Translations under genes and position numbers: made by a program
Origin: a virus
Taxonomy: Duplodnaviria > Heunggongvirae > Uroviricota > Caudoviricetes
Direction: 5' to 3' (one strand)
DNA length: 40,875 nt
IMG/VR virus record: IMGVR_UViG_2563366845_000003
Span: 1-40,875 of that record
The notes under the pieces: generated by a model
What the model was told of the DNA's origin: nothing
The model's input: the letters and a program-made list of their open reading frames with translations, nothing else
The model's database searches: none
Part shown: positions 7,729 to 38,041 of the stretch, in pieces
How the letters are laid out: each line of letters begins with the position of its first letter
Numbering within the stretch: position 1 is the first letter of the stretch

Positions 7729-7754
7729 CAAAAATAAAGGCCGGCTATGCGGCC
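7729..7754 (-). terminator. Intrinsic terminator (tL-like) at the 3' end of the accessory gene
   Basis: Minus-strand GC-only 5 bp stem GGCCG-catagc-CGGCC followed by TTTATTTTTGG; overlaps the stop codon at 7745..7747. Confidence 0.55.
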
Positions 7755-8368
7755 TCGGAAGGAAGTCCAATCATCTTATTCAAATCTTCTACCCGTAAAG
7801 CAGGAAGTGCTGTACTTGCTTTATCTGCTTCTTTTGGTAGCAACTCTTTGCTTTCAGGCCAAACTTCAATAAGTCGCTTAACTGTTGTGACTGAGTTCAA
7901 AGCAGCCCATACATTTGATTTGATATCCTTTTTCTTGACTTCAAGTTTTTGTTGCAATGCGCAGATTTCATCAAACCTTTTTGTTATTTCGTGTTCTGCG
8001 TCAAACATGCATTTATCTTTTTCTGGGGTGGGGAGCAATATATCTTCACCGTTGCCGTCTTTTCCGTATGAATGCCAGCCAACTCTTCTGCCAGATACAG
8101 TCAGATAAATTGATGTAGAACGAACATCGTATGAGTAAAATGAACATCCCAGTTTTTTAAGTTCTTCACTTATAGCTACTAACTTGGATGATAACTGATC
8201 CACTTCCTCAGTTTTCTTTTTACCGCCAAACGCAATAACTCTGGCGTCAAGTGCAAGCTGGTTCTTTAACTTTGTTACTTCTTCAAGTTCAGTGAAAACC
8301 CCAGACTTAATTAAAGCGTTACGAGCGATTTCCTCTTTCATTCTCGTAGTTAAGCGGATTGATGACAT
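7745..8368 (-). CDS. Hypothetical accessory protein (207 aa, hydrophilic, Lys/Glu-rich, coiled-coil-like); function unknown
   Basis: ATG at 8366..8368 (MSSIRLTTRMKEEIARNALIKS) with GAGAGGAA Shine-Dalgarno; the track ORF begins upstream at a TTG; followed by its own terminator; occupies the lambda ral/sieB/ea10 position. Confidence 0.7.
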   Translation of the reverse strand: MSSIRLTTRMKEEIARNALIKSGVFTELEEVTKLKNQLALDARVIAFGGKKKTEEVDQLSSKLVAISEELKKLGCSFYSYDVRSTSIYLTVSGRRVGWHSYGKDGNGEDILLPTPEKDKCMFDAEHEITKRFDEICALQQKLEVKKKDIKSNVWAALNSVTTVKRLIEVWPESKELLPKEADKASTALPALRVEDLNKMIGLPSEAA

Positions 8369-8504
8369 ATTAATTCCTCTCAAATAAGTGGTTTGCTGCC
8401 TAATTTCATTTTCTGGCGACCAACACAAGTCACACCCATTTCACTGCGTGGCTTGCGGTAGTAAATAGGGTTATTTATGTCATTAAAAACCAGCATGAGC
8501 GTGG

Positions 8505-8783
8505 TTATTTTTTCTTTCCAAGAGATGGAAGCCCTCCAGAATAATCTGGACCACTTGAACGATGCATTTGATACAATATTGCGTTTTTTATTGCGTTTTT
8601 GTTGGCGTTTAGTGGCTTTGTTGCGAAAGAAATTTTTTCTCGTTTTACATCTCTTATCATCATCAACTCACGTTCTGATGCTTTTGGATGATAATCATTG
8701 ATATGCTTCCATGCTGCCTTGGCGCTGAATTTTCTTCCACATAAAGGGCAATAGCATTTATATGATACTTGTTTGCTAGTCAT
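8505..8783 (-). CDS. Small C2H2-like zinc-finger protein (92 aa)
   Basis: Motif C-P-L-C-x11-H-x4-H (CPLCGRKFSAKAAWKHINDYH); ATG 2 nt after the N stop codon. Confidence 0.6.
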   Translation of the reverse strand: MTSKQVSYKCYCPLCGRKFSAKAAWKHINDYHPKASERELMMIRDVKREKISFATKPLNANKNAIKNAILYQMHRSSGPDYSGGLPSLGKKK

Positions 8784-8785
8784 TT

Positions 8786-9094
8786 CTATCTCGCCGTAAT
8801 TGATTTCATTGACCTGTAACCAGCAGCATACAGTGCAACTTCAGGCAAACAAACGCTTCCGCCATTCGCATCTGTATTTGATTTACTGATGATGCCGAGT
8901 GATATTGCTTTTTCAGAAAGACTTAAACGCTTTCTCGGTTCTTCCTGAACAGCTTCCTCACTGTCTGTGCCGAAGATCGAATCGATGATGTTGCAGATGG
9001 AATCACGCTCGATAGCCAGCTTTCTGCGCCGCTCATGACGGCGAGTTTTGGCATTTCCTGCAAATGTTGATTTTCCGTACACGATTACCGTCAT
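8786..9094 (-). CDS. N: Antitermination protein N, P22 type (gene 24 homolog)
   Basis: 102 aa starting MTVIVYGKSTFAGNAKTRRHERRRKLAIER; GNAKTRRHERRRKLAIER is the P22 N arginine-rich boxB-binding peptide; GAGGA Shine-Dalgarno; the track ORF over-extends upstream. Confidence 0.85.
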   Translation of the reverse strand: MTVIVYGKSTFAGNAKTRRHERRRKLAIERDSICNIIDSIFGTDSEEAVQEEPRKRLSLSEKAISLGIISKSNTDANGGSVCLPEVALYAAGYRSMKSITAR

Positions 9095-9213: not shown

Positions 9214-9247
9214 GCGCTTTGTCAGCGCCCCATCGAAGTTAAAGAGC
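9214..9247 (-). promoter_or_regulatory. nutL site (boxA GCTCTTTAAC, 9 nt spacer, boxB GCGCTGACAAAGCGC)
   Basis: On the minus strand boxB is identical to P22 nutL boxB; boxA matches the CGCTCTTTA-type consensus; lies in the pL leader upstream of N. Confidence 0.8.
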
Positions 9248-9293
9248 CTGCCAATCTGTTCCGTTTGGCTACCAGCGTCCTGCTGATGGCTAA

Positions 9294-9322
9294 ATAGTAC
9301 GATGTGTACTTTAATGAGTCAA
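9294..9322 (-). promoter_or_regulatory. pL promoter (-35 TTGACT, 17 bp spacer, -10 TACTAT) with overlapping OL operator palindrome AGTACGATGTGTACT
   Basis: Hexamers on the minus strand at 9317..9322 and 9294..9299; palindrome AGTAC-N5-GTACT at 9296..9310 overlaps the -10; a related element sits in OR. Confidence 0.6.
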
Positions 9323-9385
9323 TACAAAATGTTCTAAATGTGGTTGGTTTTTTATAACACTTTGTATTTTATTGATTTATATTTT

Positions 9386-9417
9386 GGAAAAAGAAAACCC
9401 GACGCTAAGGTCGGGTT
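9386..9417 (-). terminator. Intrinsic terminator downstream of cI
   Basis: Hairpin CCCGAC-loop-GTCGGG with a T-rich run on the minus strand (TTTTCTTTTTCC); T-rich on the plus side too, so possibly bidirectional. Confidence 0.65.
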
Positions 9418-9447
9418 ATTGTTGTGTGTTTTAGAGTGGTGAGGCTG

Positions 9448-10107
9448 TTAACTAAATGTCTCTTCAGGCCACTGGCTGGCGATAACTTTCCCTACTACGG
9501 AACAGCTATCATTGCATGGGATCATTGGATATTGCGGGTTTAGTGGTTGTAGGAACACCTGACCGCTATCCCTGATCAGTTTCTTGAAGGTAAACTCGTC
9601 ACCGCCAAGTCTGGCTATGCAGAAATCTCCTGGCTCAACAGCCTGCTCAGGGTCAACGAGAATTAACATTCCGTCAGGAAAGCTTGGCTTGGATCCTGTT
9701 GGTGCGGTCATGGAATTACCTTCAACTTCAAGCCAAAACGCACAATCACTGGCTTTTTTGGTTGTGCTGACCCATCTCTCCGCATCACCTTTGGTAAAGG
9801 TTCTAAGCTCAGGCGAGAACATCCCGGCCTGAACATGAGAAAAAACAGGGTACTCATATTGTTTTTTAACGGGGGCAGATGAGTATTCGCCAACAGGTGA
9901 AAATGTACCGTCGTGGTTGAATGAGACGTTATCAATACCAAGGTATTTAAACACCACACCAATCTCGTCAAGAGATGGATGACGAGATCCGCGCAACCAG
10001 TGACCAATTCCACCCTGCGTCATACCAAGCTCTTCAGCTAACTTCTCTTGAGTTATGCCGAGCTCTTTCATTCTGGATCTAGCCAGTTCATACCATTTCA
10101 TTTTCAT
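9448..10107 (-). CDS. cI: CI-type prophage repressor (HTH N-terminal domain plus lambda-like S24 LexA-type autopeptidase C-terminal domain)
   Basis: C-terminal 130 aa nearly identical to lambda CI ([38 protein letters not shown] ... QWPEETF); N-terminal DNA-binding domain is different; ATG 10105..10107 with AAGGA Shine-Dalgarno; the track ORF over-extends to 10182. Confidence 0.85.
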
Positions 10108-10163
10108 ATCCTTATTATTACGCTCTGTACTAAAACCATCCATGCACAAGATGTATTTTTTGT

Positions 10164-10192
10164 TTGCATTCCAAAAGTACATATCGTATTAT
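10164..10192 (+). promoter_or_regulatory. pR promoter (-35 TTGCAT, 17 bp spacer, -10 TATTAT) with overlapping OR operator-like element AGTACATATCGTATT
   Basis: Hexamers at 10164..10169 and 10187..10192; AGTAC-containing element at 10176..10190 resembles the OL palindrome. Confidence 0.55.
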
Positions 10193-10218
10193 TGTTTCAT
10201 GGTTACTATGGAGGGCAT

Positions 10219-10434
10219 ATGAGCAACCTACGAAAATATCGAGAGTCACTGAATATCTCTCAAACAACACTTGCTAAGGCAGTTGGATGCACACAGGGAG
10301 CTATCGGGCATTGGGAATCTGGTCGTCGCTTCCCAGACCTTAAAACATGCCGTGCTCTTGTTGCGTGCCTAAACAAGTTAGGCGCAAAAGTAAGTCTTGA
10401 TGACGTGTTCCCGCCTGAACACAAAGCCGCTTAA
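10219..10434 (+). CDS. cro: Cro-like HTH repressor (71 aa)
   Basis: MSNLRKYRESLNISQTTLAKAVGCTQGAIGHWESGRRF, an XRE/Cro-type HTH; GGAGGG Shine-Dalgarno; divergent from cI; the track ORF over-extends upstream. Confidence 0.8.
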   Translation: MSNLRKYRESLNISQTTLAKAVGCTQGAIGHWESGRRFPDLKTCRALVACLNKLGAKVSLDDVFPPEHKAA

Positions 10435-10444
10435 TAAGCGGATC

Positions 10445-10479
10445 CGCTCTTTATCAATCTGCACCGCCGACAACGCGGT
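10445..10479 (+). promoter_or_regulatory. nutR site (boxA CGCTCTTTA; boxB ACCGCCGACAACGCGGT)
   Basis: boxA at 10445..10453; boxB hairpin at 10463..10479 with a 5 bp stem and 7 nt loop, recalled as P22 nutR type; between cro and cII. Confidence 0.7.
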
Positions 10480-10543: not shown

Positions 10544-10840
10544 ATGGAACAAACAAGTTATAGCAAACTATCACAGCGCGACGTTGATCGCGCAGAAACA
10601 GATTTACTCATCAACCTGTCAACGCTTACCCAGCGCGGTCTGGCAAAGATGATTGGCTGTCATGAATCGAAGATAAGCAGAACGGACTGGAGATTTATTG
10701 CTTCGGTCTTGTGTGCTTTCGGAATGGCATCAGACATCAGTCCGATTAGCAGGGCTTTTAAGTATGCGCTTGATGAAATCACAAAGAAAAAATCCCCGGC
10801 CGCCACCGAGGATTTTAAGCAAATTGATATGCAATTCTGA
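10544..10840 (+). CDS. cII: CII-like transcriptional activator
   Basis: 98 aa; C-terminus [18 protein letters not shown] resembles lambda CII (KKRPAATERSEQIQMEF); HTH region [14 protein letters not shown]. Confidence 0.8.
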
Positions 10841-37782: not shown

Positions 37783-37804
37783 CCCACCTTCAGGTGGGTT
37801 TTTT
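37783..37804. terminator. Bidirectional intrinsic terminator between the convergent lipoprotein and mnt genes
   Basis: CCCACC-ttca-GGTGGG followed by TTTTTT on the plus strand; overlaps the mnt stop codon. Confidence 0.7.
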
Positions 37805-38041
37805 GTACAAATCCTTCAGCGTATCAAACACCATCTTCTTAACAAGTTCAGACTGCTCATCAGCGATGCGTTCCGCATCGTCTCGATAGCCTGAAATTTT
37901 GGATGGCTTTGATACAGCATCAGTCACTATCTGAACTAATTCTGAATTAAGAGAGCGGCCATTGGATTTGGCTCGCTGTTTTAGTTTTTCCTTTAATTCG
38001 TAAGGTAGCCGCAGATTAAATTGCGGGTCATCTCTTCCCAT
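37790..38041 (-). CDS. mnt: Mnt repressor (P22 immI ribbon-helix-helix repressor)
   Basis: 83 aa MGRDDPQFNLRLPYELKEKLKQRAKSNGRSLNSELVQIVTDAVSKPS ... ERIADEQSELVKKMVFDTLKDLYKKPT closely matches P22 Mnt as recalled. Confidence 0.85.
   Translation of the reverse strand: MGRDDPQFNLRLPYELKEKLKQRAKSNGRSLNSELVQIVTDAVSKPSKISGYRDDAERIADEQSELVKKMVFDTLKDLYKKPT

Follow-up and report, generated by a model that had tools for sequence, protein, structure and literature searches.

Which immunity does the switch region at positions 9214 to 10479 specify, and has it been seen before? The sequence-only reading of the window (the whole stretch of DNA that was analysed, 40,875 bases) described a mosaic, in which a CI with a C-terminal domain of the lambda type and a non-lambda DNA-binding domain is combined with P22-type N and nut sites and rexAB is absent, and could not assign its specificity to any named phage. 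The mosaic account was correct, but the statement about specificity was wrong. The region, which runs exactly from the nutL boxB (9214-9228, minus strand) to the nutR boxB (10463-10479), is very probably the immC lysis/lysogeny switch of a P22-like (Lederbergvirus-like) E. coli prophage with the immunity type of phage VT2-Sakai. Because its repressor, Cro and operators match the VT2-Sakai type and named coliphages, the immunity type is, judging from sequence, one already described (in VT2-Sakai and several named coliphages) and not a new specificity. The VT2-Sakai type corresponds to cI2c/cro4 (PMC3430580), and the same study directly describes the hybrid CI of VT2-Sakai, whose C-terminal domain is like that of lambda but whose N-terminal domain differs; for this structure, PMC10742460 cites Fattah et al. 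2000.

The cI gene (9448-10107, minus strand) codes for a repressor of 219 amino acids (217 if the start is at 10101), with an N-terminal HTH_3 domain and a C-terminal S24 autopeptidase domain (Pfam HTH_3 and Peptidase_S24, the latter with E = 9e-29). From YEYPVF onward, the C-terminal domain is, as had been read from the letters, almost that of lambda CI, with 133 of 136 residues identical (three differences, 98%) and a DNA identity of 93.4%. The N-terminal part is indeed not that of lambda (only 45% DNA identity). Its homology to the N-terminal domain of the lambda repressor is weak (E ~7e-4 versus 1LLI), and a search for a close solved structure of this domain gave only distant helix-turn-helix relatives, the lambda repressor among them at that E value. 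The motif QAGM at residues 93-96 (Ala94-Gly95), Ser132 in GNSM and Lys175 in FKKL align with A111-G112, S149 and K192 of lambda CI; with the S24 domain, the Ala-Gly cleavage site and the Ser/Lys dyad all present, the predicted protein fits the LexA/S24 self-cleaving repressors. The entire CI is 100% identical to those of vB_EcoP-720R6, Dewey and E. coli MS1718 and differs from that of phi458 at one residue. Compared with VT2-Sakai CI, 211 of the 219 residues are identical (BLASTP 97%), and none of the eight changes falls within residues 1-46, where the helix-turn-helix sits. Taken alone, the N-terminal 83 amino acids are 96.4% identical to those of VT2-Sakai, Stx2 II and 2851, and 100% to those of phi458.

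On the other side of the switch, cro (10219-10434, plus strand) codes for an HTH_3 protein (Pfam) of 71 amino acids, all 71 of them identical in VT2-Sakai Cro. The Cro proteins of phi458 and E. coli MS1718 are also 100% identical, while those of 720R6, Dewey and Louie carry A49E relative to the Cro of the window. Cro shares 35% identity with the N-terminal domain of CI, and the recognition helices of the two are near-identical (QGGIGHW in CI, QGAIGHW in Cro). The cII activator gene that comes next (10544-10840, plus strand; Pfam Phage_CII, E = 5e-32) is of the same type as in VT2-Sakai, and the terminator scan placed an oop-like terminator on the strand opposite cII (10789-10816, minus strand).

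The candidate operators had been described as sharing an AGTAC-N5-GTAYT element that overlaps the -10 of both pL and pR. This element is real, and its two copies, at OL1 (9295-9311) and OR1 (10175-10191), each overlap the -10 hexamer of a good sigma-70 promoter, but there are six putative 17-bp operators in all where only two had been seen. We built a weight matrix from the six annotated operators of VT2-Sakai, i.e., from a related phage, so that the matrix is not independent of homology. Over the full 40,875 bases, the six sites with the highest scores were three at OL and three at OR, and they coincide with the positional equivalents of the VT2-Sakai operators, which the VT2-Sakai record itself labels as putative. 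The binding data found for operators of this type were obtained with lambda CI and not with the cognate CI (PMC10742460). As in VT2-Sakai, the three OL and three OR sites have the same placement relative to pL, pR and pRM. On the left, OL1 (AAGTACACATCGTACTA on the minus strand) is the best hit in the window (19.7 bits), with one spacer base different from OL1 of VT2-Sakai. It is followed by OL2 (TAGAACATTTTGTATTG on the minus strand, 9320-9336, 16.4 bits), which overlaps the pL -35 and is identical in phi458, 720R6, Dewey and Louie, and by OL3 (AAATACAAAGTGTTATA on the minus strand, 9353-9369, 16.4 bits), identical to that of E. coli MS1718 and one base off phi458. On the right, OR3 (TATTACGCTCTGTACTA, 10116-10132, 15.1 bits) and OR1 (AAGTACATATCGTATTA, the second-best hit with 18.3 bits, overlapping the pR -10) are both identical in phi458, 720R6, Dewey, Louie and MS1718, and between them lies OR2 (ATGCACAAGATGTATTT, 10142-10158), the positional equivalent of VT2-Sakai OR2. 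Altogether, OR1, OR2 and OR3 are identical to the OR sites of phi458, 720R6 and Louie, and each OL site differs by at most one base from those phages. Every operator differs by one to three bases from its VT2-Sakai counterpart, with the conserved positions (AC at 5-6 and GT at 12-13) unchanged.

The promoters fit this arrangement to different degrees. The promoter scan recovered pL (TTGACT-17-TACTAT, 9294-9322, minus strand), at the position of the pL annotated in VT2-Sakai, and pR (TTGCAT-17-TATTAT, 10164-10192, plus strand), for which it gave the overlapping register 10163-10192. The candidate pRM (TGGATG-17-AATAAT, 10114-10142, minus strand) is placed purely by the position of the pRM annotated in the VT2-Sakai record; its hexamers are weak, and the consensus promoter scan did not pick it up. 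From this position, the cI mRNA would be near-leaderless. The weakest of the operators is OR2, the sixth-best hit, whose score of 11.2 bits falls short of the average best score obtained with shuffled sequence. Its distance from OR1 is 33 bp, compared with 24 bp in lambda, and it does not overlap the pR -35. Since the match is weak and the distance long, neither cooperative binding of OR1 and OR2 nor repression of pR by OR2 is assured. No candidate for an alternative OR2 nearer to OR1 was found within 10155-10175, either by eye or in the weight-matrix scan.

The slot between cI and OL is empty in the window. The cI stop codon is only 78 bp from OL3, and the order is 30 bp, a strong intrinsic terminator of the cI (pRM/pRE) transcript (9388-9417, minus strand) and then OL3. 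This terminator, found by the terminator scan, folds with -12.4 kcal/mol (z = -4.6), a value that none of 200 shuffles matched. The absence of rexA-rexB, with cI followed directly by terminator and OL, was thus described properly: tblastn with lambda RexA, RexB and P22 SieB against the whole window gave nothing significant (the best match for rexA-rexB had E = 1.9). In lambda this slot is occupied by rexAB, and in VT2-Sakai and phi458 by other cargo.

The N gene (8786-9094, minus strand) codes for an antiterminator of 102 amino acids of the P22 gp24 type (Pfam N_peptide, E = 6.5e-37). It is 69% identical to gp24, with full identity over residues 6-31, where the arginine-rich motif GNAKTRRHERRRKLAIERD lies. 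Its targets are also P22-like, as previously proposed, since both boxB hairpins are identical to those of P22: nutL boxB GCGCUGACAAAGCGC (9214-9228, minus strand), which folds into a 5-bp stem with a 5-nt loop, and nutR boxB ACCGCCGACAACGCGGU (10463-10479, plus strand), which also folds as a hairpin. Alignment with P22 nutL placed the nutL boxA (GGCTCTTTA, where P22 has CGCTCTTTA) at 9240-9248 on the minus strand, and alignment with P22 and VT2-Sakai placed the nutR boxA (CGCTCTTTA) at 10445-10453 on the plus strand. It is at this nutR boxA that the homology to VT2-Sakai stops and P22-type sequence starts. Both nut sites were exchanged along with N. In relatives, the same cI/operator/cro cassette is found joined to three different partners, i.e., N/nut cassettes of the lambda, 933W or P22 type. 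Close by, at 8383-8475, the displaced lambda-type N gene has left a relic. At gathering thresholds, Rfam gave no hit anywhere in the window.

Comparison with named systems places each module. The resemblance to lambda lies in the divergent pRM/pR, the three OR and three OL operators of 17 bp, the centres of OR1 (near -17 of pR) and OR2 (near -42/-43 of pRM) and the probably leaderless cI mRNA; the differences lie in the DNA-binding domain, the operator sequences, Cro, N, the nut sites and the missing rexAB. This is not imm lambda, with 45% DNA identity in the N-terminal part, operators of the AAGTAC type rather than the TATCACCGC type, and no rexA-rexB. With P22, the window shares an identical or nearly identical pL leader, like the N arginine-rich motif and both boxB, a repressor gene followed directly by OL without rex genes, and P22-like virion genes. 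It does not carry P22 immC (c2 immunity): the C2 repressor is only 37% identical to CI, P22 Cro gave no significant match in the window, and the P22 operators are of a different type. In the window, we found no true homologue of P22 ant, arc, sieA, int, c3, kil, gp17 or erf (the arc query hits only the mnt homologue), so that ant and arc of the immI region are missing and mnt alone remains.

The DNA-binding domain, Cro and the six-site operator set all fit the VT2-Sakai type, which is also found in Stx2 phage II, the Stx1-converting phage of Morioka V526, Nil2 and 2851 (PMC3430580). VT2-Sakai itself (Sp5, an Stx2 phage) differs in its 933W/H-19B-type N with its own nut sites and in two extra ORFs (H0092 and H0093) between cI and OL. 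Closer are the E. coli P22-like phages vB_EcoP-720R6, vB_EcoP-683R2, Dewey and Louie, and phi458, with a DNA identity of 97.4-97.8% over 9275-10434, although all five have a lambda-type N and a lambda-type nutR boxB (GCCCTGAAAAAGGGC). The compact layout of the window (OL, terminator, cI, OR, cro) is shared by 720R6, Dewey and Louie, whereas phi458 carries an inserted ORF of 348 amino acids in the cI-OL interval. Dewey and Louie belong to Lederbergvirus and form plaques on E. coli K-12 (PMC12243541), and phi458 comes from avian pathogenic E. coli, where it is a prophage that was induced spontaneously (PMC9701743). In the prophages of E. coli W and MS1718, the whole arrangement, including the P22-type N, nutL and nutR, is 98.8-99.4% identical, with only scattered point differences.

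The sequence-only reading had itself named an exact match of repressor and operators to a known type as what would overturn its view of the specificity, and such matches exist in named phages for CI (720R6 and Dewey), Cro (VT2-Sakai and phi458) and OR1-OR3. One could still argue that the eight CI substitutions relative to VT2-Sakai, together with the operator spacer differences, make the prophage heteroimmune to every named phage, given that the region is only ~93-94% identical in DNA to VT2-Sakai, that the CI N-terminal domain differs at D47S, E48D and V61I, and that no operator is free of changes (one to three bases each). However, the first 46 residues of CI, with the helix-turn-helix, are the same as in VT2-Sakai, as are AC 5-6 and GT 12-13 of the operators and the entire Cro, and CI and the OR operators have identical counterparts in named phages (720R6 and Dewey for the former, phi458, 720R6 and Louie for the latter), so we regard a new specificity as very unlikely. 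Somewhat less remote, but still unlikely, is that the region is functionally lambda-immune, the near-lambda C-terminal domain and the distantly similar recognition helices allowing CI to bind lambda operators, or to form mixed oligomers with lambda CI, with cross-immunity as the outcome. Besides the 133 of 136 residues shared with lambda in this domain, Fattah et al. 2000, as cited in PMC10742460, pointed to cross-immunity between VT2-Sakai and lambda, and lambda CI binds VT2-Sakai operators in vitro with an apparent KD of 3.7-6.4 uM (PMC10742460). Yet this affinity is more than tenfold weaker than that for its own OR1 and OL1 (PMC10742460). Moreover, the N-terminal domain has only 45% DNA identity to that of lambda, and no half-site is common with lambda TATCACCGC beyond the 17-bp geometry and AC at positions 5-6.

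A third possibility is that the prophage is cryptic and its immunity region decayed and no longer functional. Past rearrangement is visible in the lambda-type N relic at 8383-8475 and in the loss of ant and arc from the immI region, but cI, cro, N and cII are all intact, and the catalytic residues, promoters, terminator and nut sites are in place. The identical CI is found in plaque-forming phages (PMC12243541), and the window contains complete P22-like gene sets for replication, lysis and the virion, which makes decay highly improbable. The VT2-Sakai immunity type in a P22-like prophage is the reading that we follow below.

The region is most likely a lambda-style switch with SOS-triggered self-cleavage of CI. 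In the lysogen, CI dimers would occupy the six putative operators (consensus roughly wAnTAC-N5-GTAnTw). Since CI at OL1 and OL2 would cover the -10 and -35 of pL, and at OR1 the -10 of pR, early transcription would be shut off in both directions. At OR2, centred ~43 bp upstream of the cI start codon and beside a weak -35, CI probably activates pRM, whose transcript, the near-leaderless cI mRNA, would end at the terminator 30 bp past cI, while the overlap of OR3 with pRM suggests negative autoregulation. The near-lambda C-terminal domain would provide dimerisation and cooperativity; stimulated by RecA, it would also cleave CI at Ala94-Gly95 through Ser132/Lys175 and thereby make the prophage SOS-inducible. 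After induction, Cro, with its CI-like recognition helix, would bind the CI operators and switch pRM off, and the P22-type N would load on the P22-type boxB in the pL and pR transcripts and allow terminator read-through. There is a small chance that the wiring departs from this scheme: the 33-bp spacing of OR1 and OR2, combined with a lambda-type cooperativity domain, might mean that OR2-bound CI only activates pRM without repressing pR, with OR2-OR3 and OL1-OL2 as the pairs, or else the small differences from VT2-Sakai in CI and operators could make a separate immunity subtype, and we hold this to be quite unlikely. In its modules, the region shows ordinary lambdoid mosaicism.

For annotation, the value of the assignment is that the prophage should be homoimmune with Dewey, 720R6 and VT2-Sakai-type Stx phages, as far as sequence can predict it. 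As a discovery the region is of little importance, since its repressor, Cro and OR operators recur exactly in named phages and hundreds of sequenced E. coli genomes. It is a clean textbook case of lambdoid modular exchange. The exact sequences of CI and N were found on 616 and 778 contigs, respectively, and that of Cro on at least 1000. At least 80% of the region 9214-10479 is present in ~200 of 5,426 complete E. coli genomes, and over its full length it is 99.3% identical to the prophage of E. coli W.

The interval 9214-10479 is exactly the span from the boxB of nutL to the boxB of nutR in a lambdoid early control region. To its left lies N (8786-9094, minus strand, Pfam N_peptide). Inside it, nutL boxB (9214-9228) and boxA (9240-9248) are followed by pL (TTGACT-17-TACTAT, 9322-9294) with OL1 (9295-9311), OL2 (9320-9336) and OL3 (9353-9369). 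Only 78 bp separate OL3 from the stop codon of cI (9448-10107, minus strand, Pfam HTH_3 and Peptidase_S24), and an intrinsic terminator (9388-9417, -12.4 kcal/mol, z = -4.6) sits inside that stretch. Then come OR3 (10116-10132), OR2 (10142-10158), OR1 (10175-10191), pR (TTGCAT-17-TATTAT, 10164-10192), cro (10219-10434, Pfam HTH_3), nutR boxA (10445-10453) and boxB (10463-10479) and, outside the interval, cII (10544-10840, Pfam Phage_CII). A terminator with a 12-bp stem is found antisense in the 3' end of cII (10789-10816, minus strand), where lambda and P22 have the terminator of their oop RNA; Rfam gave no family match at this site.

The immunity type of the region is already known, and its arrangement is common. 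Megablast against phage records matched, at ca. 94%, the cI-cII segment of the Shiga-toxin phage VT2-Sakai and of Stx2 phage II, Nil2, 2851, the Stx1-converting phage of Morioka V526 and many O157 Stx2a phages. Cro is identical to that of VT2-Sakai (71/71), and CI shares 211 of 219 residues with its counterpart (BLASTP, 97%), the first 46 being identical. A search with the core only (9275-10434) recovered the P22-like coliphages vB_EcoP-720R6 (720R6), vB_EcoP-683R2, Dewey and Louie and the avian pathogenic E. coli prophage phi458 at 97.4-97.8%. In translation, CI is identical in 720R6, Dewey and the prophage of E. coli MS1718 and one residue off in phi458. OR1, OR2 and OR3 are the same in phi458, 720R6, Louie and MS1718; OL2 is also identical in the phages phi458, 720R6 and Louie, with OL1 and OL3 each one base off from theirs. 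Since the exact CI and identical OR sites occur in named phages, repressor and operators match a known type, and the sequence-only reading was wrong to consider the specificity unassignable. The tblastn comparison it had proposed, with the first 83 residues of CI, gave 63 phage records at ≥95% and phi458 at 100%. The exact sequences of CI, Cro and N are present on 616, at least 1,000 and 778 public contigs, respectively. Prophages in E. coli W and further strains match the full length of 9214-10479 at 99.3-99.4% identity, and at least 80% of the interval is present in ca. 200 of the 5,426 complete genomes of E. coli. The repressors of VT2-Sakai, Stx2-II, 1717 and YYZ-2008 have been assigned to type cI2c, and the Cro proteins that go with them to cro4 (PMC3430580).

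The mosaic nature described earlier was right. From YEYPVF to the end, CI differs from lambda at 3 of 136 residues (C122/S, D200/E and S219/G; 93.4% DNA identity), while the N-terminal part has 45% DNA identity to lambda. In an alignment with lambda, the Ala94-Gly95 cleavage site corresponds to A111-G112 and the catalytic residues Ser132 and Lys175 to S149 and K192; by homology, the C-terminal domain should supply dimerization, cooperativity and RecA-stimulated self-cleavage. The recognition helices of CI (QGGIGHW) and Cro (QGAIGHW) are nearly the same, which fits the binding of both to one operator set. As cited in PMC10742460, Fattah et al. (2000) found the homology between VT2-Sakai and lambda CI to be high C-terminally and low N-terminally and reported cross-immunity between the two phages. 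Lambda CI binds the six VT2-Sakai operators at 3.7-6.4 µM, more than tenfold more weakly than lambda OR1 and OL1 (PMC10742460).

The AGTAC-N5-GTAYT elements noticed before are OL1 and OR1, each overlapping the -10 hexamer of its own promoter (pL and pR), but four of the six predicted operators had been missed. We derived a symmetrized weight matrix from the six annotated VT2-Sakai operators; across the whole window, the six top matches to it were exactly the three OL and three OR sites (11.2-19.7 bits), the seventh scoring 9.1 bits. OR2 by itself is not distinguishable from shuffled sequence, and the six-operator call is an annotation transferred between homologues, not an independent discovery. 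We found no literature report of cognate CI binding to VT2-Sakai-type operators, so the sites remain predictions. Relative to the predicted start of pL, OL1 and OL2 have their centers at ca. -16 and -41, as they do in lambda, with a spacing of 25 bp; OR1 is at ca. -17 from the predicted pR start. OR2 adjoins a weak -35 (TGGATG), and its center precedes the ATG of cI by ca. 43 bp, the lambda geometry for activating a leaderless pRM transcript; OR3 overlaps the candidate pRM -10. We infer the workings of the switch as a whole from homology with lambda. However, there is a real difference in the OR1-OR2 center-to-center distance, 33 bp here (10142-10191) versus 24 bp in lambda, which places OR2 upstream of the pR -35 and not over it.

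N and the nut sites are of P22 type, as had been proposed: N is 69% identical to P22 gp24, with residues 6-31, including the arginine-rich motif, identical, both boxB hairpins are identical to those of P22, and the pL leader is mostly so. The N genes that accompany this cI/operator/cro cassette vary: 720R6, Dewey, Louie and phi458 combine it with a lambda-type N and lambda boxB (GCCCTGAAAAAGGGC); VT2-Sakai has it with a 933W/H-19B-type N; and MS1718, E. coli W and phiKp_30, like the window, have it with P22-type N and nut sites. On the right side, identity to VT2-Sakai stops inside boxA, where P22-type sequence starts; to the left, all the phages compared have the pL leader in common. A lambda-type N has left a relic of its 3' end at 8383-8475 (minus strand), apparently in no called gene, the overlying ORF having only ca. 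38 codons. The relic encodes YYRKPRSEMGVTCVGRQKMKLGSKPLI*, which from KPRSEMG up to the stop matches the C terminus of Dewey N, and this suggests that an ancestral lambda-type N was mostly replaced by the P22-type N together with a 92-aa ORF (8505-8783, minus strand). This 92-aa product (PHROG 20899, with weak, subthreshold zinc-finger matches) and a 207-aa protein (7745-8368, minus strand, PHROG 1965) are encoded downstream of N in the pL operon.

The absence of rexAB was also correctly noted: the cI-OL slot contains nothing but the terminator, and tblastn found no rexA, rexB or sieB in all 40,875 bases. Their lack is normal and no special feature, the slot holding rexAB in lambda, H0092 and H0093 in VT2-Sakai and a 348-aa ORF in phi458. 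Slot cargo in these relatives falls in PHROG 6191 (phi458, locus L005, 3186-4232) and PHROG 2602 (VT2-Sakai, locus L001, 1182-1999). Given that lambda carries rexAB at the same place, the phi458 and VT2-Sakai genes are candidate exclusion or defense genes.

The prophage in the window is complete and P22-like, with terminase, coat protein and tailspike head-binding domain 92, 73 and 76% identical to those of P22. The nearest phage record is IME10, with 97% identity and 48% coverage over the first 25 kb. A homologue of mnt (37793-38041, minus strand; 76% identical to P22 Mnt) is located directly upstream of the tailspike gene (38188 onward), and no homologue of ant, arc or sieA is present in the window. 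Of immI, the second immunity region of P22, mnt alone is thus left, so immunity should depend only on the 9214-10479 switch.

The Klebsiella phage phiKp_30 (LC768498; locus L004, 3560-4021) has an N identical to that of the window, nutL and nutR sites that match, and a Cro in the same 90%-identity cluster. Its cI is almost wholly deleted, OL3 is missing, OL2 is altered and OR1-OR3 have point changes; phiKp_30 appears to have arisen, as a virulent form, from a phage of this immunity type.
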